This document shows, piece by piece, positions 13,832-62,544 of a stretch of DNA of 64,000 bases; position 1 is the stretch's first letter; the number at the start of each line of letters is the position of its first letter. The notes under the pieces were generated by a model. The model ran no database searches and was not told the DNA's origin. It worked only from the letters and a program-made list of their open reading frames with translations. The position numbers and the translations under genes are program-made. The DNA comes from a virus. Lineage: Duplodnaviria; Heunggongvirae; Uroviricota; Caudoviricetes. The stretch covers positions 1-64,000 of the IMG/VR virus record IMGVR_UViG_3300029841_000001; one strand, written 5' to 3'.

Positions 13832-14911
13832 TTATTGATTTGTTCCTACATATATTTTGTTCTCCATAAGTTTCAACAAAGTTTCTTTACCTCTATCTGT
13901 TGGAGAATCTTTATAACCTAACAAATTTGTACTATCCCATAGTACAGATACAGAAACAAATGGACTTAATTTATCTATGATTTTATCTTTTATATGTTGT
14001 GACCAGTTTTTACATTCATCTGAATCAAGAGTTTGATATTGTTTATCCAATGCAATAATAACTTCTCTAACTCCCAACATAAGAATCATTCCTTTTTGAT
14101 AATCAGTTAAATTACTTCCACATAAAGCAACTGTAAAATTATCTTCACCAAACATAGTATCAGTTTGAAATACTGATTTTTCAGCTTCTACAAGCATTAC
14201 CTTTCTCTTTTTTTGAATTGCATTTATATTATGATTTAAACCAAATAAATTCAATCCAAGAGAATGATTATAAAATTTATTGCCAATTTTAAACGGTGCA
14301 TATTTACCGAATAATTCAATATCATCAGGTAGTAATGCTCTCGATCTTACACCAACTAAATTATTTTTCATATCATAATGCGGAATGATGATTTTTTGTT
14401 GCCATGTCGAATAAAGAATATTGTACTTTTTCATTGTTTCTACAGAAATTCCTTCTTCTATCCATGATTGACAATAAAAGTGCTGAAATATATTAAGAAC
14501 GTTTTTATCGTAAGGAACTAATATTTTATCTTTTGGTTTTACCTTTTTATTTTTCTTATATTTTTTAATAAACTCCCAATCGGAAATTTGTTCCTGTTTA
14601 CCAAATCCATACACATGATTGTCAAGATTTAATTTTACAGAAATCCAATTGATAGCTTTTTGAAATTCTTCTTGTTCATATCCTTTATATCCCATAACTA
14701 CGCCAATAATATCTAATTGACCGCATTCTGTATAACAATGAAATGACATAGAATCTTTATAAAAATATAATTTAGGTTTAGTTCCATGATGACATATTGT
14801 ATCTGTAATCCACATATCATCATCTTCGTAATAAAAAGTAGCTCCCATTAATTCAAGAAGTTTCTTAATATCATCTTCTGTAAGTTTACTTTTTAATTCC
14901 TGGGCGGTCAT
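13832..14911 (-). CDS. DnaG-like DNA primase (zinc-binding domain + TOPRIM)
   Basis: N-terminal zinc-binding CHHGTKPKLYFY...FHCYTCG; TOPRIM-like LVEAEKSVFQTD...; position between helicase and RecJ. Confidence 0.6.
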   Translation of the reverse strand: MTAQELKSKLTEDDIKKLLELMGATFYYEDDDMWITDTICHHGTKPKLYFYKDSMSFHCYTECGQLDIIGVVMGYKGYEQEEFQKAINWISVKLNLDNHVYGFGKQEQISDWEFIKKYKKNKKVKPKDKILVPYDKNVLNIFQHFYCQSWIEEGISVETMKKYNILYSTWQQKIIIPHYDMKNNLVGVRSRALLPDDIELFGKYAPFKIGNKFYNHSLGLNLFGLNHNINAIQKKRKVMLVEAEKSVFQTDTMFGEDNFTVALCGSNLTDYQKGMILMLGVREVIIALDKQYQTLDSDECKNWSQHIKDKIIDKLSPFVSVSVLWDSTNLLGYKDSPTDRGKETLLKLMENKIYVGTNQ

Positions 14912-26917: not shown

Positions 26918-27829
26918 TTAATGCATTTCCTTATCGGCTTTATGTAATCTCATTACATTATTATAAAGTTTATCTCCAAGCAATTTTTGATATTTATGTT
27001 TTGTTTTATCTCCGTATTCTTTATCTTTTTCCCAGAAATGAGGTTGCATATGTAAATTAATAATAATAGAAACATCCAATCTATTTACACTTTGTGGATA
27101 ATCAAAGAACAAACTATCATATGAACCTGTACAATGATGCTGATAATAATGTGCTATATCTGTTATTTCTCCTTTTGAGTTAACAAAGCTTTTAACAAAT
27201 GGTTTACCGCAATCATGAAGCGATCCCGCATAGTATAGTAAAGAATTATCTTTTAATTCCTCTCCAACTAATTTGCAATGTTGTCCAAGTGTATATACAT
27301 GATGTGGATTATCCTGGTTAAATTCCATATGTTTATCAATCCAATTTTCAACAGTATCCACAATTTTATAATTTTGCGGGAACACGATCCTAATATCATC
27401 CCATCCTTCAAACCAATATGGAGTATTCCAATTTTTATACATTCTATCAATTACTTCATATGGAACAATTCTACTTCTTGACTCATTCTGTTTATAGCAC
27501 ATATGAAACGGAGTAGCCATTATTATACATTTTTTAATACATGGAATATTTTTAAGTTCAGACAAAAACGCCCTACGTCTTTTAGATTTAATATTTGTTG
27601 CGTCATAAATTGTATTCTTACCATTTTTTAAATTATTTTTAATTCTTTTGTGCAATACACGAAATACTTCTTCGTTTTGATTTTGTATATTTTCATTACC
27701 AAATAATTCTTCTCTAATAGCATCTGAATTACAAATTATTGCATTAATGTCATCCGATAATTGTTTTGCATAAGTGGACTTGCCTGACCCAACAAGACCA
27801 ACCATCATAATAAAAATAGGTTTATTCAT
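26918..27829 (-). CDS. Polynucleotide kinase-HD phosphohydrolase (Pnk-HD-type end-healing enzyme)
   Basis: N-terminal P-loop kinase (MVGLVGSGKSTYAKQ, downstream D and R as in polynucleotide 5'-kinases). C-terminal HD domain (H..H...LHDCGKP...H). Adjacent to the RNA ligase. Confidence 0.6.
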   Translation of the reverse strand: MNKPIFIMMVGLVGSGKSTYAKQLSDDINAIICNSDAIREELFGNENIQNQNEEVFRVLHKRIKNNLKNGKNTIYDATNIKSKRRRAFLSELKNIPCIKKCIIMATPFHMCYKQNESRSRIVPYEVIDRMYKNWNTPYWFEGWDDIRIVFPQNYKIVDTVENWIDKHMEFNQDNPHHVYTLGQHCKLVGEELKDNSLLYYAGSLHDCGKPFVKSFVNSKGEITDIAHYYQHHCTGSYDSLFFDYPQSVNRLDVSIIINLHMQPHFWEKDKEYGDKTKHKYQKLLGDKLYNNVMRLHKADKEMH

Positions 27830-29144
27830 TTACAGTTTCCTCATATAATTCTTCTGCTTCTTCAATATCGGGAGTATCTGATGTATCTTTTGCAATACCT
27901 TCAACAACTTTAAATTCAAAAACTTTATCTTTAAAAGCAGTAAATGTTTCCCTATTATCAATACGGACGACTACTCCTTCTGCGATATGTGTCTTTCCAA
28001 TCTCATCCACTGGCATCCCGTCAAGATATTTATTTACTCTCATTTTTAAATCTTCTGGGGTTGTATAAATAAATTTCTCTAAATCTGGTACATGTTTAAC
28101 GCCTAATTTGTCACACCATATTTTAGTTACTTCCCAAGGGACTTCAACAACTGTTCCATCTGCGGTAGTCATAGTCATTCTATACACATACATTTCTGAT
28201 TCACCAGGTTTACATCCATATGAAAATATAGTAGTGTCACCGAATTTCTTTATAAATGCTTTATCTTTTACACTTTTATTTGAAACGGAACTCATAATAG
28301 GAGTAGACTCATTTACATATCCAACAATCTCATAAAAGATTTCACATCCTTCTGGTAATTTATCTTTTAAAATATCATGATATTTTCTTCTGAATCCATT
28401 GTCTGAATAATATCCATCATTCTTTGCCATATCTTTTAATACAACTCTTCTACTTCCAGATACAACGGAAACTTCTCTAATTGTCTTTGGACACATTCGA
28501 AATAATCTTCTTAGTAAATTATTTTTCTTGGTTACTTTTACAGTTTTCATTGTACGTGCAGATGTTCCATGCATTTTTCTTGTAATATAAATTGTATCTC
28601 CTGGTTTAAACGCAGATATATTATATGCAAGCTGTGCAGTATCCTTATGCTCTTCAAAAAATGGATACGATATAGATTCTTGTTTATATTTATTTTTCTT
28701 ATTTTTTGAATTAGGTATATTTGAATTTGAACGTCTTTTACTTCTTGGAATATATTTCTTACAAATCTCATGTCCTCCAAGAATTGTAATTTGATCACCA
28801 TCTTTTAATTTTGAAATATCAGTATATTTAGAAAGTGTTTCAACTGGTAAAACAAGTCCTTCTGATTTCTCGCCACGGAGTCTTATAGCGGTAACATTTC
28901 TTTTTTCTGCGTCCATATAACCGCCGATGTTATTACCATTTTCATCTTTCTTTCGCACAAGATTATTATCTATAGCAAATTCAATAGAAAGCTGTCCATC
29001 GGAAGGAAAGAATATTACTTTTTGTCCTTCTTTATAGCTTAAATCTACAATTACATTTTGACCAAATACTTCCGCACACTGTAATCTATCAGCATTACTA
29101 TGTTTCCTTAGACCTTTTAGCGTTGTTATATATGCACAATACAT
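27822..29144 (-). CDS. ATP-dependent RNA ligase (Rnl2/DraRnl-like)
   Basis: Adenylyltransferase motif I RKMHGTS (T4 Rnl2 KIHGTN); N-terminal extension upstream of the nucleotidyltransferase domain; 440 aa. Confidence 0.55.
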   Translation of the reverse strand: MYCAYITTLKGLRKHSNADRLQCAEVFGQNVIVDLSYKEGQKVIFFPSDGQLSIEFAIDNNLVRKKDENGNNIGGYMDAEKRNVTAIRLRGEKSEGLVLPVETLSKYTDISKLKDGDQITILGGHEICKKYIPRSKRRSNSNIPNSKNKKNKYKQESISYPFFEEHKDTAQLAYNISAFKPGDTIYITRKMHGTSARTMKTVKVTKKNNLLRRLFRMCPKTIREVSVVSGSRRVVLKDMAKNDGYYSDNGFRRKYHDILKDKLPEGCEIFYEIVGYVNESTPIMSSVSNKSVKDKAFIKKFGDTTIFSYGCKPGESEMYVYRMTMTTADGTVVEVPWEVTKIWCDKLGVKHVPDLEKFIYTTPEDLKMRVNKYLDGMPVDEIGKTHIAEGVVVRIDNRETFTAFKDKVFEFKVVEGIAKDTSDTPDIEEAEELYEETVNE

Positions 29145-33694: not shown

Positions 33695-34723
33695 TTAGAT
33701 TTCACCTTTAACTACTCTTTCATTTACAGAAGCTACAAACTCATTAATCTTTTTATAATCTGGACTATCTGGTAAATCGGTATTCTCTTTTGCGTAGTCT
33801 AATCTCTTTTCATATTCATCTACCATTTCATAAAATTCTGGAACAGGTTGCCTATTTTCATCTAAATATTTACCATTACGAATATCCATAAGTAAATCAT
33901 GCTCTTTATCTCTATAGGTATTGATTTCTCCTTTTTCAAGAATATCCAGGCACATCATATATAATCTAATCAAATGCATCATATGTTTACCTAATTTATT
34001 TGCTTCAATCGCTTTTTGATTGCGTTTACCAATCTTGCCATATGCTTTTACGATAGATTGCATTTCAGAAATCATACCAGAATAATCTCTTAGAGGATAA
34101 TGTGTTAAATTCACATCCATAAAAATTTCCGTATCATATCCCTCTTGAACTGCTTTATCAATATATAATTTAATCGCATCATCTGGCATTGTAAAATGTT
34201 TTTGTTTAAAGTCAAACATTGCATGATCAATTGTCTTAAAGATATGTTCTTCGTTTTTAGCCTGTCCAACTAATCTATTTGACTTATTCTCCAACCTACG
34301 GAGCTGCTGATTAGCATAGCCACCAAAAGAATAAATTGCTTTCTTCGATAGAAATAAATCTTTATTATAAATAAATTCTCTACCAATTGGCGATACATAG
34401 AAATAATGTTCTGGTTTATTACCGAGCATTTCAATTGTGTTAGGATTACAATTGCATAACAGTGAAATCAATTTATTAAACGCATAAATGGTTGTATCTG
34501 TTTTTTCATTTACAAATTGCTCAAAATTTTCATTCGTAAGAATTTGCATTTTACTATTCAATGCACATCCTCTAATATCCAGATCACTTGTTTCTGTATT
34601 TGTACCATAAGCATGACTTCCACCAAGTGTAAGAATAATAATATTATTACCTAAATTCTTATCTTTTCGTAAGAAATCGTATTCTTTACTTCTTAATTTC
34701 TCTTTAATCTGCTCTATTGTCAT
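33695..34723 (-). CDS. Pol-beta-superfamily nucleotidyltransferase
   Basis: LTLGGSHAYGTNTETSDLDIRG matches hG[GS]-x9-13-[DE]h[DE]h; 342 aa with a helical C-terminal domain. Confidence 0.5.
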   Translation of the reverse strand: MTIEQIKEKLRSKEYDFLRKDKNLGNNIIILTLGGSHAYGTNTETSDLDIRGCALNSKMQILTNENFEQFVNEKTDTTIYAFNKLISLLCNCNPNTIEMLGNKPEHYFYVSPIGREFIYNKDLFLSKKAIYSFGGYANQQLRRLENKSNRLVGQAKNEEHIFKTIDHAMFDFKQKHFTMPDDAIKLYIDKAVQEGYDTEIFMDVNLTHYPLRDYSGMISEMQSIVKAYGKIGKRNQKAIEANKLGKHMMHLIRLYMMCLDILEKGEINTYRDKEHDLLMDIRNGKYLDENRQPVPEFYEMVDEYEKRLDYAKENTDLPDSPDYKKINEFVASVNERVVKGEI

Positions 34724-36192: not shown

Positions 36193-37080
36193 TTATCGTG
36201 TAATAACATTAAACATATCATCTACAGAATCAAGTAAATCATATCTTTTATCAAACGGAGCAGTTGAACTTTTTGCAAATTTTTTCTCTACCATATCAAT
36301 GTAATATGTAAATTCAGAATCTCGTCCCATATAAAACTCATCCCATTCTTCCTGAGTTAATAATCTTTTTACATTCAACTGCTCAATTGCAAGATTATCA
36401 AAACTTACAACTTTAAATTTCTGAATAATATCTTCAAGATTTTCATATAACCATTGCTGCTTAGTCTCAATATCATTCTGTTCTTCTTCAAAATACTCAT
36501 TACCTCTACGCAAATGTTTATACCCAAGAATTAACATCTTTAAATTATTATTCTCTAATGCTTTTATATCAGATGGTTTTAATACACCATTAATTACATG
36601 AATAACTGCATTTGGATATTGTTTTATAAGTTCAATAAAATGTTTTGTGGGATTTACTAGCGAAACGCCAAGACCATAGATTAATTTCTCGTCAACTAAC
36701 TTTTTGATTAATTCATGCTTCTTTTCAAAATGGATCTGATTAACAGTCATATTTGCAATAACTTTTCGTTCTTTTAGTTTTTGTAAGAATGGAATTAAAT
36801 CAGGATGACTGGTTGCATCACCACCGCCAATTGCAATTTCTTGATATGGATGTAAAGTATCAATAAATTTTTCATTTAAAATATCTCCAAATTTACCATG
36901 TAAAGAGCTACCCTCATGACAAAATTTACATCCCCTATCACAGTAATTACAAATTTTTACATCCATGTTTTCAGCAAAACTAGGAATAAATTCATCATCT
37001 TTTGTTTCTCTAATTTTTGTTCCGTCACTCAAAATAGTTGTCACAAAGTTACCGTTTTTATATCTTCCTAATAATCCCAT
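36193..37080 (-). CDS. Radical SAM enzyme
   Basis: CNYCDRGCKFC contains the CxxxCxxC [4Fe-4S] motif near the N-terminus; glycine-rich AIGGGD SAM-binding-like motif; 295 aa. Confidence 0.55.
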   Translation of the reverse strand: MGLLGRYKNGNFVTTILSDGTKIRETKDDEFIPSFAENMDVKICNYCDRGCKFCHEGSSLHGKFGDILNEKFIDTLHPYQEIAIGGGDATSHPDLIPFLQKLKERKVIANMTVNQIHFEKKHELIKKLVDEKLIYGLGVSLVNPTKHFIELIKQYPNAVIHVINGVLKPSDIKALENNNLKMLILGYKHLRRGNEYFEEEQNDIETKQQWLYENLEDIIQKFKVVSFDNLAIEQLNVKRLLTQEEWDEFYMGRDSEFTYYIDMVEKKFAKSSTAPFDKRYDLLDSVDDMFNVITR

Positions 37081-37095
37081 TCTTAACCCTCCTAA

Positions 37096-37389
37096 TCAAT
37101 CATGACCGTAATATCCAAATGCAACTACTGTATCACCATTTTTTGTCGTAAATGTATCTTCAAAAGTTTTATAATCAAGTGCGCCATACTCATTAAAACG
37201 ATCATATGTATAATATCTGTCATCATCATCATGATCTGTATCATCTAGTGGAATTAATTTATCTTCCCAATAATCATAAATAAGTTCTCCATTTTTCCAT
37301 CTATCATAATCTGATTGTGTACACATTGTTAAACTATGTACGCTTGATGAATTAGTTTCAAATACACCTCGTCTAATTTGTCTCTTCAT
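37096..37389 (-). CDS. Hypothetical protein, paralog A (N-terminal MKRQIRRGVFETNSSSVH motif)
   Basis: Shares a near-identical 20-aa N-terminus with the next gene. Confidence 0.4.
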   Translation of the reverse strand: MKRQIRRGVFETNSSSVHSLTMCTQSDYDRWKNGELIYDYWEDKLIPLDDTDHDDDDRYYTYDRFNEYGALDYKTFEDTFTTKNGDTVVAFGYYGHD

Positions 37390-37394
37390 ATAAT

Positions 37395-37973
37395 TTAATT
37401 TCCTTTCATATAAACTTCATAATTGTCAAACACTGGTTTTAATCCACCATAATTTGTATATGTACCCCAACTTGTTTCTTCTTCACCTTCGTTGACATAC
37501 ATTGTGTCTCTAAAAGCATTCGAGTTATCATTGCCAGTAATCACTATTGAATTACCAAACAAATACCTAAATAATTTATCTGAATCTGCTAATACATCAT
37601 TAACAAAATCTTGTGTTTCTTCTGAATGATCAATATACCCATCAATATCATAGTAGTATCTTGTTTTACCATCATATTTATATGTATCAACTTTTAATTC
37701 CGGAAGAGTATATTCAATATTATTATCATCTAAAATATCTTTTAATTTCTGTAAATTTTCATCTGCCTTATTCTTATCAAAACTTAGAATCGCCGTGATT
37801 AAATATGATGCCTTATCATATGATGCCCCATAAGTAATATTCTCCCAACCAAACTCTCCTACTACAAAATCAATATGACTTAAAGGATTGTAATTCCCTT
37901 TAGTGATACAAATTGCATGTGTACTACTCGAATTAGTTTCAAAAACACACCTTCTAATCTGTCTCTTCATTTT
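37395..37973 (-). CDS. Hypothetical protein, paralog B (MKRQIRRCVFETNSSSTH motif)
   Basis: The listed ORF extends to 38012. The internal Met at 37973 has a good RBS (AGAGAGGAAAAT) and aligns with paralog A. Confidence 0.4.
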   Translation of the reverse strand, partial: KMKRQIRRCVFETNSSSTHAICITKGNYNPLSHIDFVVGEFGWENITYGASYDKASYLITAILSFDKNKADENLQKLKDILDDNNIEYTLPELKVDTYKYDGKTRYYYDIDGYIDHSEETQDFVNDVLADSDKLFRYLFGNSIVITGNDNSNAFRDTMYVNEGEEETSWGTYTNYGGLKPVFDNYEVYMKGN

Positions 37974-38012
37974 ATTTTCCTCTCTTTCTTCTTTATGAAA
38001 ACAACATTTCAT

Positions 38013-39113
38013 TTATCTTAAATCTACATCATTTCGGGTTTCTCCATCAGAATAATAAATATTCCAATCATTAAATAAATTTATAAGCAAATCATTATCC
38101 CATTTGTCATATTCATTACAATGGGTAATTGCAATTGATTTTGTATTTCCAAAATCTCCAATATCATCAGAACATCTATTATATAGTTCTCTTAGATTAA
38201 GATGTCCATATCTTAATATATCTTGAAAAGGATTTGGAACATTTGTTTTATCATACATATATTCGTTAATAAAATTTTTATTGCATTCTGATGGAAATTT
38301 CCCTGCGCCATGTCTTGTTAAATAAGTACGAGATACATAACAAGTTTCAATATTTATATCATCATTCCATTCAATATTTTCAATTATTTTCTTGGGATTT
38401 TTAATTCCAGTGTTAGATGGGGTAAGATGTGGAAAATAATCAATATTATTTTGATCAAGTAAAAGCCCTTGTGCTGCTTCAAAAATAATATTGTCATACT
38501 GATTTAAGAAATATTCATCTGAAATACACAATGAATGGCTATTCATAAAATCCAAGTCTTCTAAGAAATGTTCAAATATACCATTATCAAAAAAGATTTT
38601 CAACCATTCGCCTGATAATTCAATGTCCTCCTTTTTAAATTGTTCCAAATAGTATTCTTTAATATTGTAATCTAAATCAGTTACACCAGCTCTATATCTT
38701 TTAATTGTCTCAAAAACCCCTAATCCACAACTACCATGTTTATTTTTACCACGGCTTTCCTCAACGATTTGATTAGCTATCATATCAAATGGAGTTGTTA
38801 TCATGCAATTTTGATTAATATATACATTTAGATTATGATTAAGTTTTACTAACTCATCATATTCTTGTTTAAAAATAATTGGATTAAGAATAAAATCCTC
38901 AGATAAATATGTACTTGCGTTATTAAATGTACCTGATCCAAAATGATGAAAGACATGTCTAATTGCAGTTGGCGTTGTTACAGTATGTCCTCTTTGCGCT
39001 CCACCATTTGAACACACAACAATGCTATTGGATTTTTGCGAAAAATAATCTGTCATCAAGCCCTTTCCTTCATCCCCAAAATTTGCTCCAATTACAATCT
39101 TAATGTCTTTCAT
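38013..39113 (-). CDS. Adenylosuccinate-synthetase-like enzyme (PurA family; PurZ candidate)
   Basis: GANFGDEGKGLMTD (PurA GDEGKGK P-loop) and NGGAQRGHTV (PurA GG.NAGHT). 366 aa is shorter than cellular PurA and within the phage PurZ range. Confidence 0.55.
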   Translation of the reverse strand: MKDIKIVIGANFGDEGKGLMTDYFSQKSNSIVVCSNGGAQRGHTVTTPTAIRHVFHHFGSGTFNNASTYLSEDFILNPIIFKQEYDELVKLNHNLNVYINQNCMITTPFDMIANQIVEESRGKNKHGSCGLGVFETIKRYRAGVTDLDYNIKEYYLEQFKKEDIELSGEWLKIFFDNGIFEHFLEDLDFMNSHSLCISDEYFLNQYDNIIFEAAQGLLLDQNNIDYFPHLTPSNTGIKNPKKIIENIEWNDDINIETCYVSRTYLTRHGAGKFPSECNKNFINEYMYDKTNVPNPFQDILRYGHLNLRELYNRCSDDIGDFGNTKSIAITHCNEYDKWDNDLLINLFNDWNIYYSDGETRNDVDLR

Positions 39114-39130: not shown

Positions 39131-40009
39131 CTACCATGTAATTTCTTCTGAACCAGAAGATGTTGTAACTGAATTTACTACATTATTTTCTGCTTCATTA
39201 ATGATAATGTCTACAATTTCATTCGTAATACTATCCATAGTCACTTTTCTAAAATGAACATCATCAAGATATTTTCTATAAGATGTTTCAATCTCATCTT
39301 CGTCCCATCTACGACCATGATTTACATCTAAATGATAAATATTAAATTTTTTAGAAACTTCATTATATAAATCTTTTGTTTCTACATCATCTTGAAGATT
39401 ATCCCCTGTTGCTTCAATCAATCCGCTATAACAACCTCTTAACGGAAGATATGGATTAAGCTGTTCATCTCCCATAGTGATGATAATTCCTTTTCTTCCA
39501 CGATTTAAACAATCAAGCTTTGTATGACGAGAACCAAAATACCATGCTGCGGTATAAGACTCGTAATTATTTCCACCACCACCAAATTCAAAATAAATTT
39601 TATCAAGCTGTTCAGCAATACGAATATCTGATTCAAACTGAGAAGCTTGAATAGGGTAAATGTCACATGCTAAATCTCCAATCCCCATAATGAGAAATTC
39701 AACATCTGTTACTTTCTCATATAATTTAGTCATAATTACATTGAGTTTCTTTGCTACTTCAACGGCAGCTTGTCCCATAGATCCAGTAACATCTAATGCT
39801 AAAATAACTGGAACTGTATTTGGATGTTCTTCTGTGTCGCAACATTCCCTGATTACATTTTTAGGATTCAGTGCAGGATCAATATTTGTAGCTTTGAACA
39901 TATCCTGATTAGAATAAGAACCACTAATTGTTCCATCTTTTGAAACACTTCTTCCTACTGATTTTGAATAACTTGTATAACTAGCTCTTGTCCATGATCC
40001 ACATCCCAT
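39131..40009 (-). CDS. von Willebrand factor A (VWA) domain protein
   Basis: MIDAS motif ILALDVTGSMG. Confidence 0.55.
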   Translation of the reverse strand: MGCGSWTRASYTSYSKSVGRSVSKDGTISGSYSNQDMFKATNIDPALNPKNVIRECCDTEEHPNTVPVILALDVTGSMGQAAVEVAKKLNVIMTKLYEKVTDVEFLIMGIGDLACDIYPIQASQFESDIRIAEQLDKIYFEFGGGGNNYESYTAAWYFGSRHTKLDCLNRGRKGIIITMGDEQLNPYLPLRGCYSGLIEATGDNLQDDVETKDLYNEVSKKFNIYHLDVNHGRRWDEDEIETSYRKYLDDVHFRKVTMDSITNEIVDIIINEAENNVVNSVTTSSGSEEITW

Positions 40010-40010
40010 A

Positions 40011-40619
40011 TTATGCTTCCTCCTCTTCTTCTACATCTGTATCATTGTCTGTATCAAAATCAAACATTCCATCAAACATTTCTCCCATATTTCCACCCAT
40101 CATCATAAATGGTAACATGGCACTCATTCCTCCACTATTTCCATTTAGCATTCCAGAAGAATTGTTTTCACCTTTCATCATTTGTGAAAGCATCATATAT
40201 TTAAAAATATTGTTTGTGCCTTTCTTTCCTTTTAAAATATCACATCCAAACATTGAAACAATTTTCCCATAAAAATATGTATTACCCATAAATACATGTC
40301 TCTCAGGTAAAATAGTTTCTACTGTTGAATCTTCATAGTTGATTACAGTAATTTTAGTTTTATCAGATTCAATGACACATTTTGGTTTATTATTAACTAA
40401 AATAATATCACCTTTTTCTACTTTATTTGTTGGAATTACAAAGAAAAATTCTTCTCCAATATCAAACACAAAATTGCTACAATTAGTAAGTTTACTTGTT
40501 TTAACATTGTAGCTTTTGTACCCGTTTGATGTTTTTACTGCAATTCCTCCATTCATTGAAAGCCTACACATTCCACTTCCAACTTTCCCAAACATCCCGT
40601 TTAAAAAATTGTTCATCAT
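40011..40619 (-). CDS. Hypothetical protein with Gly/Met-rich and acidic C-terminal tail
   Basis: 202 aa; ...GMLNGNSGGMSAMLPFMMMGGNMGEMFDGMFDFDTDNDTDVEEEEEA; overlaps the VWA gene (operon). Confidence 0.4.
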   Translation of the reverse strand: MMNNFLNGMFGKVGSGMCRLSMNGGIAVKTSNGYKSYNVKTSKLTNCSNFVFDIGEEFFFVIPTNKVEKGDIILVNNKPKCVIESDKTKITVINYEDSTVETILPERHVFMGNTYFYGKIVSMFGCDILKGKKGTNNIFKYMMLSQMMKGENNSSGMLNGNSGGMSAMLPFMMMGGNMGEMFDGMFDFDTDNDTDVEEEEEA

Positions 40620-40884: not shown

Positions 40885-41190
40885 TCATATTTCCTCAAAC
40901 ATATTTTTGTTTATACACGCTTGACACTTTCTCCCTACAACATCTTTCTGTCCATACTTACACTCAGTACAATTAGCCAGCTCAAAATATTCTCGCTCCC
41001 ATTGAAGAACATTATGGAAATCATATGAAGCATATCCCATATGATAATTGTCTTCTCCAACTTCCTTGTATTTTAATAAATAACATGGTTTATCGTCTAT
41101 AATCTCGAAAATTTGTTCTATATCGGTTACTTTTGTTTTTGGATTATGTTTAATATTTGTACTTGTTTTACACATTGCTATTACTCCCAA
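40885..41190 (-). CDS. Cys-rich hypothetical protein
   Basis: 101 aa. Confidence 0.35.
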   Translation of the reverse strand: MGVIAMCKTSTNIKHNPKTKVTDIEQIFEIIDDKPCYLLKYKEVGEDNYHMGYASYDFHNVLQWEREYFELANCTECKYGQKDVVGRKCQACINKNMFEEI

Positions 41191-41540
41191 TCAAGTTTCT
41201 GTCCGCATTTATCACAATAAATAAAAGATCTATTAAGTCCTTCTCCGCAACAAGGACAATTTCCTCTTGAAGTATAATAGTTTCCAGAAAAATCGAGAAT
41301 GGATTTCATATTTGTGATTTTCTTAGGAATTTGTTTTTCCAATGCTTTAATGGCTTTCATTCTAACTTCGTAAGTACATTTACCACCATAAGCTGTGTCG
41401 TCATAACTTAATTCTTTTAATGCTTCTTCTGGTTTCATATTAGTCCTCCTAATGAAATTTCTCCTTAATGGAAACATAATCAATGAATACTCGCTTTCTT
41501 TTACCACATTTCTTACATTCCAGAACAGCTTCCTCAGCAT
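41181..41540 (-). CDS. Zinc-ribbon protein
   Basis: CPCCGEG...CDKCGQKL. Confidence 0.35.
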   Translation of the reverse strand: MLRKLFWNVRNVVKESEYSLIMFPLRRNFIRRTNMKPEEALKELSYDDTAYGGKCTYEVRMKAIKALEKQIPKKITNMKSILDFSGNYYTSRGNCPCCGEGLNRSFIYCDKCGQKLDWE

Positions 41541-52693: not shown

Positions 52694-53473
52694 TCACATT
52701 TCAACAATTCTGTATAATTGCCTATTCAGATAATGTTCAAGTAAATAATCATTATCTAGCCCAGTACCATGATAAAATTCTTCTGCAATTCCACCACCTA
52801 TAGCACATAATGTATCCATATCACATTTCAACGAGAATACATTTCGCAAGAAACTTTCATAATCATCACTTTCCAGAAAACATCTTATTGCAACAGGTAC
52901 ACTTCCTTGACAAGTTTCATTCCACTGATATGTCTTTCTATAGTCTTCAATTTTATATTCAACACTATATTGATAATCGTCTTTTGGGTAATTCTTCTTC
53001 ACATATTCATAGATTTCTGCTTTTGTAGCACCTGTTCTTGCCATATAAATGCACATTGCTGTTACAACTGCTCCTTTGATTCCCTCTGAATGATTATGTG
53101 TACACTCAGCAGATTTTGTAGCCCATTCGATAACTTCTTTTTCTGTATTAAAATGTTCTCCGACATAAGAACATCTCATTGCAGATCCATTACCAAAACT
53201 TCCATATGTAGTTTCATCATCGTATCTTAACCACGTTTCAAAATTGTTTCCATATCCTGCATTTGGATATTTTCTTCCCCATTCTCTATATGATTCTGCG
53301 AAAGATTTATTATTAAGAATTGCTAATTTAGCAGCAAGTGTCATTACAGTATCATCTGTAAAATAACATCTATCAGTAAATAACTTACAATTCTTCCAGT
53401 CTAAATCAATCGGTCTACCAAATTCATATTGTGAACCTGCAATATCTCCTAAAATTGCGCCAATGATAGCCAT
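52694..53473 (-). CDS. ADP-ribosylglycohydrolase family protein (ARH/DraG-like)
   Basis: N-terminal AIIGAILGDIAGSQYEF (GDALG.p.E motif) and FTDDTVMTLA (DDT motif); 259 aa. Confidence 0.6.
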   Translation of the reverse strand: MAIIGAILGDIAGSQYEFGRPIDLDWKNCKLFTDRCYFTDDTVMTLAAKLAILNNKSFAESYREWGRKYPNAGYGNNFETWLRYDDETTYGSFGNGSAMRCSYVGEHFNTEKEVIEWATKSAECTHNHSEGIKGAVVTAMCIYMARTGATKAEIYEYVKKNYPKDDYQYSVEYKIEDYRKTYQWNETCQGSVPVAIRCFLESDDYESFLRNVFSLKCDMDTLCAIGGGIAEEFYHGTGLDNDYLLEHYLNRQLYRIVEM

Positions 53474-53756: not shown

Positions 53757-54312
53757 ATTTTAATAATTCTCCATTTCTAATGATTATTCTTGAGCAAACA
53801 AATTTTACTTTCAAATCTGTATCCCATGAATCACGTTTCTCAATTCTTGTTATAATCACAGGAGCAATTCCATTCTTTGTACCGCAATAAATCAAATCTC
53901 CTGGCAGCAACACATCATACATATTCTCTTTTGATTTTGGCAATCTCCAAACATATTCTTTATTAATAATTCCATTTGGATGTTTACCATAAATATATAC
54001 AGTTGGTTTCTCTTTATATGTAAGAACTTTCTCAGGTGGAACTAAACGTCCATATCTTACACGTTGTTTATCAGTATATTTATGTTTTCTTAACGTGATA
54101 CGTTTTGCATCACAACTCTCAGCATTATGACTTTTTAACACCAGATACATTATGTAGCCATCTACTAAAACATTCTTCTCATCTACTACTATGTACCTAT
54201 CCTGATTTCCTATTTCTTTATAATATCTACAACATTTTTCATATTTGTATAAACTTGGTACACTATTTTCAAAACTCTCTGGAATTTTGATTTCTGAAAG
54301 ATTCATCTTCAT
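53722..54312 (-). CDS. Hypothetical protein
   Basis: 196 aa. Confidence 0.4.
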   Translation of the reverse strand: MKMNLSEIKIPESFENSVPSLYKYEKCCRYYKEIGNQDRYIVVDEKNVLVDGYIMYLVLKSHNAESCDAKRITLRKHKYTDKQRVRYGRLVPPEKVLTYKEKPTVYIYGKHPNGIINKEYVWRLPKSKENMYDVLLPGDLIYCGTKNGIAPVIITRIEKRDSWDTDLKVKFVCSRIIIRNGELLKYEIDKDGSANV

Positions 54313-56582
54313 TATGCAGTAGCCCCTTTCTTATTGAATCTAATGAAGTCGTTCCTCATATGTAAATAATTTCTCTTCTGATCAATCTCATATGTATTTG
54401 TTCTTTTAAAGTAGTCCTTAAACCAATCGTCAATATCCTCATCCATCTTATAAGCATAAGCAATAAGAGCAATAAGAGATTTATGATTTACTCCATCTAA
54501 GAGTTTTGAATTATTATCAACATCAAGTGTTACAACATCCAAATCTTCCTCATAATCCAGGATATCGGCATCTGTCACATCATCATCAACACACATTTTT
54601 ACAAATTCTAAAGTATCTTTATCTACTACTTCTCCACTAACATGCTCGATTTCTTTGTTTCCAATAGCTGAATACTCTGTTACTTCTGCAATAATTGGCT
54701 TCTTATCATCAGATTCTTCTACTACTTCTGTATCAAATAAATCATCTTCGATTACATCTAATTCTGATTCTTCAACAGAATCTTCTATATGTAAGTATTC
54801 TTTCATCAGAGTAAGTAAATGATTGAATCTTTTTGTTACAGAAGAGCGATCCTTTGTACCTTTCTGACCATTTAAACAATCATATGTAATACCGTCAATT
54901 TCCTTGCTATGTAATGTTTCTTTAAACTCCTGAATAAAATCATTGAATTTATTATCTTCAACGCCATATTCTATGAATTTATCAAATAACGCAAACCATA
55001 AAAATGAATTTTTGTTATTAAAAATATCCGATGTATCACCTCTTAACACATTAGATAATTTCTCCAATGTCAAATAGAAATCAATAAATACTGATTCATT
55101 TGCATTTTCTGTTAAGTAAATACACATTTTCCCAAAGTCTTTATCAAAATGGCTAAGATATTTAGATGTCATTATTGCTTCAATAATGACTCTTCTAAGT
55201 GATCCATTCTTGATATTCGTATTTGAATAACTTGACTTATCACAATCAACCTTAAAGAAGTCCATCTTTAAAATCTTATCTACATATTCGGCATAGGATT
55301 CTTCCAATCCTAGCCATCCTGACTGAGAAACGTTCATTGGTCTACATCTATTGAATCGTGCAATATCATAAGCAATATCTTTCTTTGTACAATTCAGATT
55401 AAGCATTACAGGAACTTGATAATCCTTAAATTTATCCTGTAATTCTTCTGGTAACTGAGAAAATTTCTTTCCACGAATATCAAATGTTTTACTTTCGGGT
55501 ATTGGAAATCCATCTTCATTCAAAATCACATTACCATCTTCATCTGTCTTATCAGTCTGATATTCAATCATATATCTCTGTACATTCTTTGAAACAGCAA
55601 ATCCATCTTCCAGATAATCTTTTAAATTTGTAGAACGCTGTTTGCCATCAATTAACCAGTGCATCGTAATTCCGGCTTTGATTTCTTCTGAAATTACAAT
55701 CTGTAAAAGTGAATTACCTTGTAAAATATCAGAAATTAATTCACTTTTTGTAAGTAAATTCCATTGTCCAGAAGTTCTTTGCAATGGATGATTATCTCTT
55801 AATCTGTGCTGTCTTAACTGTTTACTAAGAGATTCTATTGAATAACTGGTAGACTTTGTTCTTTCTGATGTTGTCGTTTTTGTTTCCATTGGTAATTCCT
55901 CCTCAATATTTACATTCTCGCATTCTTCTGTTTTTAGAAGTTTTCTTTTGTCATATTCTTTCATATCAGAAAGATATGTATAATATTCCTTATCGGAAAT
56001 ATGTAAAATCTCTTTGATCTCTGTAGAATTGTATCCTTGCATTATTAAATCCGCAATTTGACGTTGTATAGTTCCAAGAGAATTAATATATCTAATTACA
56101 TTTTCCCCAAGATTCAATAATTCTCCGACATCAATATTACTTTCAATATCAAAATCCGAAGGAATCACATCCATATATTTTGTTTCTCCATCATCTGTCA
56201 TTAAATTATCTAATGATGTTGGATAAATATATTGTTTGACTTCTTTATTACCTTCTTTTGATGTTACAATCTGACATCTCTTTCCTCTGTTTTTACGTGT
56301 TATATAGGTTTTTATCTTATTCGTAATTCCAAAATACATATAACCATTGAATTTATCTTCATCAAAATCTTCAATGTTCTGATCTAATTGACTTTTTATA
56401 TACTTTGAAATATATAAATTTGCTATTGAGTAACATTCTTCTCTATCAAAATCGGTGATACCACCAAACTGCGAAAGAATTTTATCTACCATAGTATGTA
56501 ATTTTTTTGCTGATTCTTCTGGTTTATCCTCGTTTACTTTATAGTACGATTCCAGAATTTCTTTGTAGTGCATCTGTACCAC
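54312..56582 (-). CDS. Sigma-70-like HTH (regions 2/4-like) fused to a DUF262 (ParB/DGQQR-type) domain and a long acidic C-terminal region
   Basis: N-terminal ~210 aa include LGTIQRQIADLIMQGYNSTEIKEILHIS (sigma region-4-like HTH). The middle has HPLQRTSGQW ... WLIDGKQRSTNL, i.e. the DUF262 [FY]QR..W + DGQQR motifs. The C-terminus is D/E-rich. Confidence 0.5.
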   Translation of the reverse strand: MVQMHYKEILESYYKVNEDKPEESAKKLHTMVDKILSQFGGITDFDREECYSIANLYISKYIKSQLDQNIEDFDEDKFNGYMYFGITNKIKTYITRKNRGKRCQIVTSKEGNKEVKQYIYPTSLDNLMTDDGETKYMDVIPSDFDIESNIDVGELLNLGENVIRYINSLGTIQRQIADLIMQGYNSTEIKEILHISDKEYYTYLSDMKEYDKRKLLKTEECENVNIEEELPMETKTTTSERTKSTSYSIESLSKQLRQHRLRDNHPLQRTSGQWNLLTKSELISDILQGNSLLQIVISEEIKAGITMHWLIDGKQRSTNLKDYLEDGFAVSKNVQRYMIEYQTDKTDEDGNVILNEDGFPIPESKTFDIRGKKFSQLPEELQDKFKDYQVPVMLNLNCTKKDIAYDIARFNRCRPMNVSQSGWLGLEESYAEYVDKILKMDFFKVDCDKSSYSNTNIKNGSLRRVIIEAIMTSKYLSHFDKDFGKMCIYLTENANESVFIDFYLTLEKLSNVLRGDTSDIFNNKNSFLWFALFDKFIEYGVEDNKFNDFIQEFKETLHSKEIDGITYDCLNGQKGTKDRSSVTKRFNHLLTLMKEYLHIEDSVEESELDVIEDDLFDTEVVEESDDKKPIIAEVTEYSAIGNKEIEHVSGEVVDKDTLEFVKMCVDDDVTDADILDYEEDLDVVTLDVDNNSKLLDGVNHKSLIALIAYAYKMDEDIDDWFKDYFKRTNTYEIDQKRNYLHMRNDFIRFNKKGATA

Positions 56583-58179: not shown

Positions 58180-58330
58180 TACCAATTCTCTTTCCTCTTT
58201 ATTGTCAACATTTCCCCATTTTTCTACTACGTCACGCTTGTCAATGGTAAAAATCTGCTCTCGTGAACTACCACGAAGCTAAAGACTTCGTAGCTTCTTG
58301 GGACTATACTCTTATGAGCATTTCATTACC
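58180..58330 (-). ncRNA. Predicted omega-RNA (reRNA) region at the 3' end of tnpB / right end
   Basis: Inferred from TnpB biology: the guide RNA scaffold derives from the tnpB 3' end and RE, and this region contains the RE hairpin. Boundaries are not determinable from sequence alone. Confidence 0.3.
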
Positions 58331-59680
58331 AAGCTAATAACCGTGTTCCACAGTCTCTTATATTCATCGCTGCATTATAATCTCTATCGTTTTCATATCC
58401 ACAATCACAAGTATACCATCTGTCTGATAATTGCAAATCTTCTTTAATAGTGCCACAACAATGACACATTTTAGAAGACGGAAACCATTTATCAATCTTA
58501 ATAAATTGTTTTCCTTGTTCTTCCAACTTATATTTCAAAAAAGTCCTAAACATTCCAAATCCATTATCATGAACATTCTTTCCAAGTTTTAGACATTGAG
58601 CCATATTTCTTAAATCAATATCTTCTACTATAACAGCGTCATATTCGCCAGCTATTCTTCTCGATTCTTGGTGTAACCAATTAAGTCTTTGATTTGCAAT
58701 ATGTCTTTGTAATGTTGTAATTTTTTGTTTTTGTTTATACCAGTTTTTAGATTTAAGTTTTTTTCTTGACAATCCTCTTTGGATTTTTTTTAATTTTTCT
58801 TCTGATTTCCTATAATAGTGAGGATAATTGGCTTTCTTACCATTGCTATCAACATAGAAATCATGTTGAGAATAATCTAATCCAAGAACTTTTTCTGATT
58901 TCTTTGATTCAATATCAATTACATATTTAACACATAAACTGACATAAAATACACCCTTATTATCCATTGAAACAGTACAATTCTTAATAATTGAATTATT
59001 TGGCAATGGACGATGTTGTTTTACTTTAATCAATGTTTTAAGTTTTGGAATTTTTAACATAGAATTTTCCAATGTAATTAAATTCCATTTTTCACCTTGT
59101 GACTGATTATATGTTCTATATGAAAAATCATTGTTCTTAATACTCTTAAATCTTGGCATTCCTTTTAAGTCTCTGAAAGTAAGTTTAATTCCTAATGTCT
59201 TTTCTCTTTTTCGACTGCTTTTGGTATATGTCTTTTTATCATATTCTGTATTAAATTTTTTAATGGCATTATTAAAATCCATTTTTGCACTTGATAAACA
59301 CTGAGCATCAACATTTTTCATATAATCAAACTGTCTTGAAAAATCAGTATATTTACTCAAATGCAATTCCGATTTTTTAATTATTCCATTCTGATAACTA
59401 GACTCTTCGAGTTTTCTATATAACTCATCAACATACATATTGTATATTTTTCTTGCACAACCAAATGATTGTAAGAAAAACTCTTTCTGATCTTTAGTTG
59501 GAGCAATTTTAAACTTATAACCTCGATTAATGATAGTTTCCATCGTCTCACCACCTTTCTATGGATATTTTAGTTCCTACATATTTTTCTTTGATTTATT
59601 CTTCTTTATGTTGGTATATTCTCTATTCACATTCATTCACTAGGCTAAAGACCTAGTGGATTTCTGCTCTAGAAGTTTTA
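58260..59680 (-). mobile_element. IS200/IS605-family (IS1341-type, tnpB-only) insertion sequence with subterminal hairpins
   Basis: Intact TnpB ORF flanked by two hairpins in the same orientation with identical CTAAAGA loops and different, compensatory stems: ACGAAG/CTTCGT at 58273-58291 and CACTAGG/CCTAGTG at 59638-59658. This is typical of IS200/IS605 LE/RE structures. The element ends are approximate. Confidence 0.6.
58326..59543 (-). CDS. tnpB: TnpB (OrfB) RuvC-like RNA-guided nuclease/transposase-associated protein
   Basis: N-terminal OrfB-type HTH (GYKFKIAPTKDQKEFFLQSFGCARKIYN), C-terminal RuvC-III plus zinc ribbon CHCCGTIKED...CDCGYENDRDYNAAMNI; 405 aa. Confidence 0.75.
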   Translation of the reverse strand: METIINRGYKFKIAPTKDQKEFFLQSFGCARKIYNMYVDELYRKLEESSYQNGIIKKSELHLSKYTDFSRQFDYMKNVDAQCLSSAKMDFNNAIKKFNTEYDKKTYTKSSRKREKTLGIKLTFRDLKGMPRFKSIKNNDFSYRTYNQSQGEKWNLITLENSMLKIPKLKTLIKVKQHRPLPNNSIIKNCTVSMDNKGVFYVSLCVKYVIDIESKKSEKVLGLDYSQHDFYVDSNGKKANYPHYYRKSEEKLKKIQRGLSRKKLKSKNWYKQKQKITTLQRHIANQRLNWLHQESRRIAGEYDAVIVEDIDLRNMAQCLKLGKNVHDNGFGMFRTFLKYKLEEQGKQFIKIDKWFPSSKMCHCCGTIKEDLQLSDRWYTCDCGYENDRDYNAAMNIRDCGTRLLAW

Positions 59681-61984: not shown

Positions 61985-62524
61985 TTACTTAACCTCAAAT
62001 TTAAGAATCATTTTCTTAACTCTATCAATTTCTTCTGTTGTATGTGGTGTTCCACCTGCGTTCATATCAATATACCACTGTAACACTTCTCGTTCTGTCT
62101 TTAAATCATTCACATTCAATTTTACAGTATGACTATTTAACATTGCTAAATCCGTATACTCATTGAAATATGATCCAAATACTTTGATTTCGTTATTGAT
62201 AAATCTGCAAATAGCAGTCAATCTTTGCAACCCATCTACACACACAAACTCATTGTATGCTCCATCTTGAACAGACCAATGCCATGATGGACAATTAAAG
62301 TATATGATATTTCCGCTTTTACCGCCTTTAAGAAAGAACTCTAACCATGCAATCTGCTGTTCCTCTGTCCATACATGTCCTCTCTGGAAATCTGGGTTAA
62401 GCTGCAAGTTCATATCTTCTTCCATGTCTTTTATCCATCTAGGAACTCTACTGATATTTACATCACATTGATAGTTACCATCCCTGGTAAATTGTGGTAT
62501 GTATTTAAATTTTGTATACTTCAT
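61985..62524 (-). CDS. DUF262 (ParB/DGQQR-type) domain protein
   Basis: NPDFQRGHVW ... CVDGLQRLTAI; 179 aa. Confidence 0.55.
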   Translation of the reverse strand: MKYTKFKYIPQFTRDGNYQCDVNISRVPRWIKDMEEDMNLQLNPDFQRGHVWTEEQQIAWLEFFLKGGKSGNIIYFNCPSWHWSVQDGAYNEFVCVDGLQRLTAICRFINNEIKVFGSYFNEYTDLAMLNSHTVKLNVNDLKTEREVLQWYIDMNAGGTPHTTEEIDRVKKMILKFEVK

Positions 62525-62544
62525 AACAATCTCCTTTTATAAGA

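Follow-up and report, generated by a model that had tools for sequence, protein, structure and literature searches.

The 366-aa open reading frame at positions 38,013 to 39,113 (minus strand) of the window, by which we mean the entire 64,000-nucleotide stretch of viral DNA analyzed here, encodes a PurA-like ligase that sits beside a vWA protein in a conserved gene module. The evidence as a whole is best explained, with a probability of roughly 60%, by a distinct and uncharacterized branch of the PurA superfamily that is catalytically competent and is neither PurZ/PurZ0 nor a housekeeping PurA. The pairing of this enzyme with a vWA/MIDAS protein is the strongest new fact to emerge and formed no part of the original prediction, which had proposed a candidate PurZ of Z-genome biosynthesis.

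Results

The open reading frame runs from ATG to stop, and an AGGAGA ribosome-binding site of its own lies 8 nt upstream. As predicted, its product carries both the P-loop GDEGKG (aa 13-18) and the GG..GHT motif, here GGAQRGHT (aa 37-44), and is a homolog of adenylosuccinate synthetase (PurA) of only 366 aa. Pfam (PF00709, E=5.7e-35), PHROG (PHROG 1211, E=2.7e-63) and a phmmer search of PDB PurA chains (E down to 7e-16) all agree on this homology, as does Foldseek, in which an AlphaFold (AF2) model with a pLDDT of 96.2 and a PurA fold intact over its full length matched PurA structures at E=5e-21, with a TM of 0.74 to bacterial PurA 4m9d. The reading frame is real, and chance falls far short of explaining its similarity to adenylosuccinate synthetase. 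Its placement in a vWA-coupled clade draws on the family scores, a residue table and alignments together with the AF2 model and Foldseek search.

Directly upstream lies a gene for a 292-aa vWA (integrin beta-I-like) domain protein (39,131 to 40,009, minus strand). Pfam, NCBIfam and a PDB profile search gave no identification of this partner by sequence, and its Rossmann-like vWA fold came only from the predicted structure. The MIDAS residues are D73-V-T75-G-S77, T163 and D181, with D-x-S/T-x-S found across homologs and D73, S77, T163 and D181 invariant in 116 partner sequences; the protein has a predicted vWA fold with an intact MIDAS, a putative metal-binding site. Its N-terminus, MG-x-G-x-W, is kept across lineages that include phages of four bacterial phyla and the Clostridia cassettes. 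The vWA gene adjoins the PurA-like gene in 237 of 241 scorable loci (85/86, 77/77 and 75/78 in three sets), and among GenBank phages both genes are present in 220 records, with matching genus counts. Listeria and Staphylococcus "phage" matches that lack the partner were considered as exceptions to the pairing and set aside, being 3-7 kb fragments with partial PurA-like matches. The vWA partner was not found in PurZ phages.

The module is completed by a third gene, giving the order third gene, vWA/MIDAS gene, PurA-like gene. In the window this third gene (40,011 to 40,619, minus strand) ends 1 nt before the vWA gene and encodes a 202-aa protein, here called S-type, that has a conserved N-terminal motif (FNGMFGK..G.CRLSMNGGIAVKT), a core rich in beta structure, a Met/Gly-rich tail and an acidic C-terminus, and that returned no Pfam or PHROG match. 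S-type genes were present in 81 of 83 gut-phage loci and in 32 loci of Clostridia genomes, and genes at the third position in Vibrio and Rhizobium phages have an architecture weakly like the S-type (E=2e-5 and 6e-3). The alternative to this ~200-aa protein with its Met/Gly-rich tail is a J-domain plus kinase-like protein; the two are mutually exclusive, and hhalign detected no relationship between them. The kinase-like domain has Asn where the HRD motif has its Asp, and GGW in place of DFG, and is therefore probably inactive, and in one locus only it is preceded by a dual-specificity (DSPc-type) phosphatase gene. Separately, the S-type domain occurs alone in Bacillus phage G gp39, with no vWA or PurA-like neighbor, an occurrence that we regard as uninformative.

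The query clade is separate and large, comprising about 2,275 clusters at 50% identity (E<=1e-30). Carriers of the module are large phages of Clostridia, Vibrio, Rhizobium and Mycobacterium, and a compact chromosomal cassette version exists in Clostridia, with non-prophage chromosomal contexts and usually an NrtR-type Nudix/winged-helix regulator near the chromosomal module. We found no paper on the clade or on its vWA pairing. In the gene-product table of a paper on a Vi01-like phage, an adenylosuccinate synthase and a vWA protein stand ten entries from each other, a distance in table order.

In phages the module sits among early accessory, anti-defence and RNA-repair genes. Within the window, the genes for RlaP, Pnk-HD and RNA ligase are 3-11 kb distant from the PurA-like gene, and DUF2828, TROVE or Pnk occur near the module in L172, in the Vibrio phage and in phage I3. 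A tight link to RNA repair was not supported, with homologs of RlaP, Pnk and the ligase no more than 8 kb away in just 4-12 of 86 loci. Likewise, the radical SAM gene (36,193 to 37,080) and the two "FETNSSS" reading frames (37,096 to 38,012) directly downstream were rejected as part of the system, as they occur with the PurA-like gene in no more than ~21 of 83 related gut-phage loci. The PADLOC library (2023) of known and candidate defence systems gave no match to any component, and a link to NAD reconstitution was dismissed because the NARP3 system (NARP3 paper) has no PurA or vWA component.

Closer inspection of the active site relied on a residue table of 148 clade members in E. coli PurA numbering and on a separate alignment to E. 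coli PurA and to the phiVC8 and S-2L PurZ proteins. As in PurA (E. coli 1ade; B. anthracis 4m9d), the whole-chain fold and a GDEGKG with the catalytic Asp are present, and the residue table, AF2 and Foldseek agree that equivalents of the catalytic Asp13, Lys16, His41 and Gln224 are all kept (D14, K17, H43 and Q215 in the query). The TRxG loop and the residues equivalent to His41, Gln224 and Thr239 are invariant across ~150 diverse clade members. The query differs from PurA in being ~65 residues shorter, in its aspartate loop, and at Asn38, Thr129, Val273, Lys331, Asp333 and Arg143. The clade is marked by Gln at Asn38, Cys at Thr129, an invariant His at Val273 and an invariant Gln in the Thr301 column (Q40, C129, H268 and Q297 in the query). 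The PurA aspartate loop Thr300-Thr301-Gly-Arg303-Arg304-Arg305 is replaced by P-F-Q-D-I-L-R in the query (NPFQDILR versus GATTGRRRR) and by the consensus x-[FYW]-Q-G-x-L-R in the clade, with no conserved Arg at 303; the register of this loop between the clade, PurA and PurZ may be off by one or two positions, and a non-canonical aspartate site is possible. The guanine-specific (S/T)-K-x-D motif of PurA (Lys331, Asp333) is altered as well, reading T-H-C-N in the query, with His (113) or Cys (30) at position 331 and Asn (73) or Asp (73) at position 333 in the clade. The equivalents of Arg305 and Ser414 are mostly conserved. Among the residues that contact the nucleotide 5'-phosphate, Asn38 has become Gln, Thr129 has become Cys, and the dimer-interface Arg143 is not conserved; with several of these contacts altered, the substrate may be no simple nucleoside monophosphate.

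PurZ and PurZ0 normally occur with genes acting on the dATP/dGTP pool (DatZ, MazZ/DUF550, or DutZ/DmtZ/DUF5664) and often with DpoZ. Using the S-2L, phiVC8 and Ghobes proteins as tblastn queries, we recovered no homolog of DatZ, MazZ, DpoZ, DmtZ or the Ghobes accessory proteins below E=0.8 in the window at BLAST-level sensitivity, in keeping with the earlier observation that no stand-alone DatZ- or MazZ-like gene is obvious there. Pfam scans of the window's reading frames of ~140 aa and up (E<=0.001), a range that lies above the MazZ size class, contained no HD or MazG family. The one HD domain previously noted, fused to a polynucleotide kinase, corresponds to an H...HD motif in the C-terminal half of the kinase at 26,918 to 27,829, for which Pfam gave the kinase domain only. 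In the 176-kb relative MT835469.1, of which only 20.8 kb aligns with the window at the nucleotide level, a search of BLAST-level sensitivity for DatZ, MazZ, DpoZ, DmtZ and the Ghobes accessory proteins returned nothing at E<0.1 save an ordinary dUTPase.

Discussion

The first alternative to weigh is the one originally predicted, that the protein is a PurZ or PurZ0 condensing dGMP with aspartate to start dZTP synthesis in a phage with a 2-aminoadenine genome, with MazZ/DatZ or DutZ/DmtZ elsewhere in the genome; we consider this highly improbable. Like PurZ and PurZ0 (phiVC8 6fm1, S-2L 7odx and Gordonia phage Archimedes PurZ0 7vf6), the query is a short phage-borne PurA homolog of similar length, which at 366 aa also resembles archaeal PurA. 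In PurZ, Thr262 and Phe12 help to make room for the 2-amino group, and the donor, ATP/dATP, has its adenine stacked against Phe295 and Tyr298 (phiVC8 numbering). The query has T290 and, just before the P-loop, the aromatic F12 in the columns of Thr262 and Phe12, but both are kept across the whole Asp-containing clade and so do not discriminate PurZ. Phe295 and Tyr298 are unmatched, their columns holding His331 and a gap where the alignment is moderately reliable. The P-loop itself reads GSTGKG in phiVC8 and S-2L PurZ and GSEAKG in Ghobes PurZ0, as opposed to GDEGKG in the query, and the column of PurA Asp13 holds Asp rather than the PurZ Ser both in the query and in 148 of 148 clade members. 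Ser occupies this substrate-selecting position in 100% of 147 phage PurZ/PurZ0 proteins (PMC12884076), and changing S14 of phiVC8 PurZ to Asp, the PurA residue, was reported to abolish substrate selectivity. The NCBIfam PurZ model NF038379 scored the query at 39.1 bits (E=5.1e-10) against a cut-off of 300 bits, and phmmer against the PDB put PurZ at E=0.05-0.38 and PurA at E=7e-16. The phage match sets are also disjoint among the matches listed or genera named: tblastn with S-2L PurZ gave 201 phage records, with Mycobacterium, Rhizobium and MT835469 not among them, while the query's full-length phage matches are Mycobacterium, Rhizobium and Vibrio (Va1-type) phages. The label "2-aminooxy adenylosuccinate synthetase" on PHROG 1211, a point in favor of PurZ, is over-propagated, because by RefSeq annotation this PHROG also takes in ~200 cluster C mycobacteriophage proteins of the Asp-containing clade. 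Together with the lack of DatZ, MazZ, DpoZ, DutZ or DmtZ neighbors in our searches, the P-loop residue, model scores and separate match sets led us to reject PurZ/PurZ0 identity, and the role of the enzyme is most probably not Z-DNA synthesis. The fallback once offered, a PurA-like enzyme used in a different nucleotide modification, fares better in that the evidence favors another use, but nothing ties the enzyme to DNA or nucleotide modification specifically.

An ordinary if divergent adenylosuccinate synthetase, converting IMP, Asp and GTP to adenylosuccinate as a phage auxiliary metabolic gene for AMP/ATP supply or IMP/ITP recycling, is less remote than PurZ, and we judge it unlikely. The complete PurA fold, the retention of every first half-reaction residue (the Asp13, Lys16, His41, Gln224 and Thr239 equivalents), the largely kept Arg305 and Ser414 equivalents, and the fact that bacterial PurA proteins are the nearest PDB relatives all speak for it. 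An archaeal precedent for the short form is Pyrococcus horikoshii PurA (5k7x/2d7u; TM 0.67/0.72), a genuine IMP/Asp/GTP enzyme solved together with IMP, GTP and hadacidin, which lacks the same C-terminal insertion, but its sequence match to the query is confined to roughly the first 100 residues (E=4e-5). Set against this reading are the replacement of Thr300, Thr301 and Arg303 in the aspartate loop and the changes at Lys331/Asp333, and the query reaches only about 25% of the PurA equivalog cut-offs of NCBIfam/TIGRFAM (98.6 versus 402, 94 versus 445 and 85 versus 395.6 bits). Strict coupling to a vWA protein and a third gene, a linkage without a role in AMP synthesis, also argues against it, as does the separate, regulated cassette that bacterial chromosomes carry outside purine operons. 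A protein that has lost small-molecule catalysis and instead serves the vWA protein as an NTP-driven switch or assembly factor, in the manner of MoxR-type ATPases or SIMIBI-class GTPases toward their vWA or metal-site partners, we consider very unlikely, given the invariance of residues that serve purine chemistry and not NTP hydrolysis (those equivalent to His41, Gln224 and Thr239, plus the TRxG loop).

We therefore favor the distinct, catalytically competent PurA-superfamily branch, for which the sequence suggests the following mechanism. The enzyme would carry out the first PurA half-reaction, an NTP-dependent step that phosphorylates a hypoxanthine-type purine nucleotide at its 6-oxo group, since Asp14, Lys17 of the P-loop, His43 and Gln215 are retained. 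A guanine substrate is unlikely because the clade keeps the Asp whose loss PurZ requires in order to fit a 2-amino group, and the phosphoryl donor need not be GTP given His or Cys in place of Lys331 and Asn or Asp in place of Asp333. The activated C6 would then be attacked by an amine, which is probably not free L-aspartate bound canonically, as the aspartate loop has given way to the clade consensus. The vWA partner and the enzyme may act in a complex, in which the substrate would be presented or held through the metal site or the enzyme would be regulated, as their gene linkage suggests.

A far more speculative proposal, to which we assign a low likelihood, is that the enzyme, instead of using a free amino acid, joins the C6 of the activated purine nucleotide to a macromolecular amine, most suggestively the free alpha-amine of the N-terminal Gly that is universally conserved in the vWA partner (M-G-x-G-x-W), or a target held at the MIDAS. 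The aspartate loop has lost exactly those Thr and Arg residues that bind carboxylates, which fits an amine without free carboxylates, although many other amines would fit equally well. If true, the product would be a linkage of the protein-N6-adenylate type, a covalent nucleotide-protein chemistry not described before, serving in phage-host conflict or ADP-ribose/NAD-linked signalling, the latter hinted at by the NrtR-type regulator of the bacterial cassettes. Irrespective of the chemistry, our guess is that the module acts in virus-host conflict or in signalling linked to nucleotides, as suggested by the position of the phage genes among accessory, anti-defence and RNA-repair genes and by the isolated, regulated cassette in bacteria.

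The module can be compared with known vWA systems, namely the TerY-P triad (vWA, kinase and phosphatase), MoxR/BchI-vWA and BatA/BatB. It resembles these in the vWA fold and intact MIDAS predicted for the partner, in the kinase-like third gene of one module version, and in the dual-specificity phosphatase of a single locus. Unlike them, the query module contains no AAA+ ATPase and no PP2C, and its NTP-using enzyme is a PurA homolog, an arrangement of which we met no earlier description. The window holds the non-kinase version of the module and, in contrast to the TerY-P triad, neither a protein kinase nor a PP2C.

These findings correct a tempting misreading, in which PHROG 1211 and the RefSeq label derived from it would wrongly flag carriers as Z-genome phages, a label that by now extends over more than 200 genomes of mycobacteriophages, Rhizobium phages and Vibrio phages as well as abundant human-gut phages. 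They define in its place a large and widespread enzyme clade with a vWA partner and two alternative third subunits. This module is common to jumbo-sized phages and compact bacterial cassettes, a distribution typical of conflict systems, and its function is directly testable because culturable carriers exist, among them the Bxz1/I3-type mycobacteriophages and Vibrio phage Va1.

A structurally intact PurA-superfamily fold in a separate clade

The PurA-like gene occupies 38013..39113 on the minus strand and runs from ATG to stop over 366 aa, exactly as the original prediction had it, with an AGGAGA ribosome-binding site 8 nt upstream of the ATG. The motifs reported there were likewise recovered, GDEGKG at residues 13-18 and GGAQRGHT at residues 37-44, and the homology to adenylosuccinate synthetase was borne out by matches to PF00709 (E=5.7e-35, confined to profile positions 1-280 of 416 in Pfam), PHROG 1211 (E=2.7e-63) and cellular PurA structures in PDB (best E=7e-16). 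An AlphaFold2 model built from 131 diverse homologs was very confident (pLDDT 96.2, pTM 0.94); its whole-chain Foldseek matches were PurA-family structures only, led by bacterial PurA (4m9d, E=4.9e-21, TM 0.74), with PurZ and PurZ0 ranking below (E ~2e-16, TM 0.62-0.68). Together, these findings demonstrate that the protein is, in its predicted structure, an intact enzyme of the PurA superfamily that falls in a clade of its own. Run in full over 1.84 billion representatives, HMMER sized this clade at 2,275 clusters at 50% identity (E<=1e-30).

Comparison with PurZ and cellular PurA

The original prediction took the gene for a PurZ candidate, and the family's annotation reads the same way: PHROG 1211 is named '2-aminooxy adenylosuccinate synthetase', which implies PurZ, and this RefSeq or pharokka-style label stands on genes of cluster C mycobacteriophages, Rhizobium phages and Va1-type Vibrio phages (for example NC_004687.1 (Bxz1), NC_070966.1 and OR413349.1). 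The PHROG name also spans the Asp-containing clade. When 481 phage PF00709 homologs were sorted into groups, Ser stood at the PurA Asp13 position in 147 of 147 phage PurZ/PurZ0 proteins and Asp in 99% of the PurA group, Asp13 being essential in PurA (PMC12884076); reverting S14 of phiVC8 PurZ to Asp is reported to abolish substrate selectivity (2025 preprint). We aligned the query and ~150 clade representatives with phiVC8 PurZ, S-2L PurZ, Ghobes PurZ0 and E. coli PurA, and observed a P-loop of G-S-T-G-K-G or G-S-E-A-K-G in the PurZ proteins and of G-D-E-G-K-G, or close Asp-keeping variants, in the query and 148/148 clade members. With the NCBIfam PurZ model, whose cut-off is 300 bits, the query scored 39.1, and an S-2L PurZ tblastn search returned 201 phage records (Arthrobacter, phiVC8-like Vibrio, Microbacterium, Acinetobacter, Gordonia and others), with the query's relatives absent among the rows listed and genera named. 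The earlier remark that MazZ and DatZ are not obvious in the window held at BLAST-level sensitivity, where DatZ, MazZ, the MazG-like phiVC8 protein, DpoZ and the Ghobes accessory proteins gave no window match; against MT835469.1, the closest GenBank record, the same queries returned nothing but an ordinary dUTPase (E<0.1, BLAST sensitivity). The PurZ assignment thus failed on the retained Asp, the model score, the disjoint hit sets and the missing Z-cluster partners. By every discriminating criterion that is testable from sequence, the query is not PurZ, which leaves that reading extremely improbable, and by the P-loop criterion the PHROG 1211 label is over-propagated on Asp-containing genes.

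That the query is instead an ordinary PurA draws on the residues it keeps. In a table of 148 clade members in E. coli PurA numbering, Gly12, Asp13, Lys16, Gly17, His41, Glu221, Gln224 and Gly225 are invariant and Thr239 and Ser414 nearly so; because residues such as Asp13, Lys16, His41 and Gln224 are invariant, the query is predicted to keep the machinery that phosphorylates a 6-oxopurine. The aspartate and GTP-guanine sites appear remodelled. Clade changes comprise Asn38 to Gln (145/148), Thr129 to Cys (138/148), Val273 to His and Thr301 to Gln (148/148 each) and Lys331 to His or Cys; Asn and Asp are equally common at Asp333, and neither Arg303 nor Arg143, which lies at the dimer interface and binds the IMP phosphate, is conserved. 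The aspartate loop reads GATTGRRRRTGW in PurA, VTKKVRRVFSF in PurZ and NPFQDILRY-GH in the query, in an alignment uncertain by a residue or two. PurA equivalog models scored 85-99 bits versus cut-offs of 395-445, and on these scores and the altered sites we rejected a housekeeping PurA: judged from its sequence, the query is not a PurA equivalog, and an ordinary PurA is unlikely.

Linkage to a vWA protein and a third gene

Directly upstream lies the gene for a 292-aa vWA-domain protein with a MIDAS site (39131-40009), whose sequence had no match in Pfam, NCBIfam or PDB. In each of three distant phages a homolog immediately precedes the PurA-like gene: Vibrio phage phiKT1024 (E=9e-53), Rhizobium phage RHph_TM2_3B (E=7e-42) and Mycobacterium phage I3 (gp271, E=3e-39). 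Among GenBank phages, 220 records carry a full-length PurA-like match and 220 the partner, with matching genus counts (PurA-like/partner: Mycobacterium 202/201, Rhizobium 10/10, Vibrio 6/6); the few partner-less matches are 3-7 kb fragments, partial and cellular-PurA-like. Pairing held at 85/86 loci of a first viral-contig and phage set, at 75/78 loci of a second, more diverse viral set (partner within 5 kb) and, after six-frame checking, at 77/77 loci in GTDB genomes that had room upstream. Literature searches turned up no account of either the clade or this pairing.

A third gene completes the module. In the window it is a 202-aa ORF (40011-40619) ending 1 nt before the vWA gene, and this S-type occurs in 81 of 83 related gut-phage loci. 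S-type proteins have a conserved N-terminal motif and close with a low-complexity tail, rich in Met and Gly, that gives way to acidic residues (…MMMGGNMGEMFDGMFDFDTDNDTDVEEEEEA); the third genes considered here were the window ORF, L001:7054-7767 and L002:4750-5544. Vibrio and Rhizobium phage genes in the same slot weakly resemble this architecture. The alternative K-type, a ~332-aa protein homologous to Mycobacterium phage I3 gp270 (E=1e-18), begins with a J-domain, in which HPD is invariant, and continues into a kinase-like domain lacking the HRD Asp and DFG. The two types occupy 32 versus 31 genome loci with zero co-occurrence. We take the S-type tail to recall, in resemblance only, the GGMP-type tail of Hsp70/DnaK and, likewise, the K-type J-domain to recall an Hsp70/DnaK co-chaperone. 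Collectively, these data demonstrate that the PurA-like gene is genetically locked both to the vWA/MIDAS protein and to a third subunit of one or the other type.

Chromosomal cassettes and genomic setting

In Clostridium carboxidivorans P7, Desulfosporosinus hippei and Ruminococcus flavefaciens YL228 (loci L150, L152 and L141), the K-type module forms a compact, non-prophage island among ordinary chromosomal genes, comprising an NrtR-like regulator, the J-domain and kinase-like protein, the vWA protein and the PurA-like enzyme, with unrelated housekeeping or membrane genes on either side. An NrtR-type regulator (Nudix domain plus NrtR winged helix, with a degenerate Nudix box in the one example inspected) is nearby in 58-59 of 77 loci, and a dual-specificity phosphatase is added at one module locus. 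In layout the cassette looks like a small island of defence or stress genes, although the module components had no match in PADLOC. Directly downstream of the window's PurA-like gene, a three-gene cassette (36193-38012, minus strand) encodes a 295-aa radical SAM protein (CxxxCxxC; PF04055 just at threshold; PHROG 16999) and two small paralogs of 97 and 205 aa (PHROG 28997, unknown function) with a common N-terminal 'MKRQIRR.VFETNSSS.H' motif. These genes travel together, in ~21 of 83 related phage loci, and are a facultative insertion.

The window corresponds to a large phage's early/replication region. Its G+C is ~30%, all substantial ORFs lie on the minus strand, each of the 32 two-kb bins has a negative GC skew (cumulative -8.9), and no tRNA genes or DNA polymerase were identified in it. 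Its genes include thymidylate synthase, NAD-dependent ligase, RecD2-like and DnaB-like helicases, a sigma factor and a DNA methylase; minus-strand replication-region ORFs of 861 aa (9489-12074), 359 aa (13832-14911) and 756 aa (54312-56582) had no Pfam match at E<=0.001. A full-length homolog of the Gabija anti-defence protein Gad1 lies at 4899-5810, minus strand (PF25705, E=1.7e-65, 291/293 profile positions). A Pnk-HD polynucleotide kinase (AAA_33, C-terminal H…HD motif) overlaps an RNA ligase (PF09414) at 26918-29144, minus strand, and ~4.5 kb beyond, an RlaP-family nucleotidyltransferase (33695-34723, minus strand) completes an RNA-repair set; Pnkp-ligase, RlaP and DUF2828/TROVE genes are loosely linked to the module in locus L172, the Vibrio phage and phage I3. 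A TnpB/IS605 OrfB-type protein (58326-59543, minus strand) has HTH_OrfB_IS605, OrfB_IS605 and Cas12f1-like TNB domains, the last weakly matched by a 119-aa zinc-ribbon ORF (41181-41540). Two adjacent ORFs with GmrSD N-terminal (DUF262-type) domains (61985-63354, minus strand) and an ADP-ribosylglycohydrolase (52694-53473, minus strand) are probably further conflict-related accessory genes.

MT835469.1, a human-faecal phage of 176 kb whose record carries no annotation, encodes a PurA-like protein 98.9% identical to the query, with nucleotide-level alignment to the window over 20.8 kb only. An Anaerobutyricum hallii annotation holds a near-identical copy of the query's neighbouring gene, with remoter relatives in Lachnospiraceae and Ruminococcus genomes; given these copies and the faecal origin of MT835469.1, the host is probably a gut clostridial bacterium.

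Proposed function

Our preferred reading, to which we assign a probability of roughly 0.6, is that the query, neither PurZ nor an ordinary PurA, would activate a hypoxanthine-type 6-oxopurine nucleotide with NTP, couple it to an amine other than the canonically bound aspartate, act as a complex with the vWA protein, and may serve in phage-host conflict or nucleotide signalling. A version in which the amine sits on a macromolecule, for instance the N-terminal glycine conserved in the partner, is doubtful and distinctly improbable. It is from gene linkage and genomic setting only that we draw the complex and the role.
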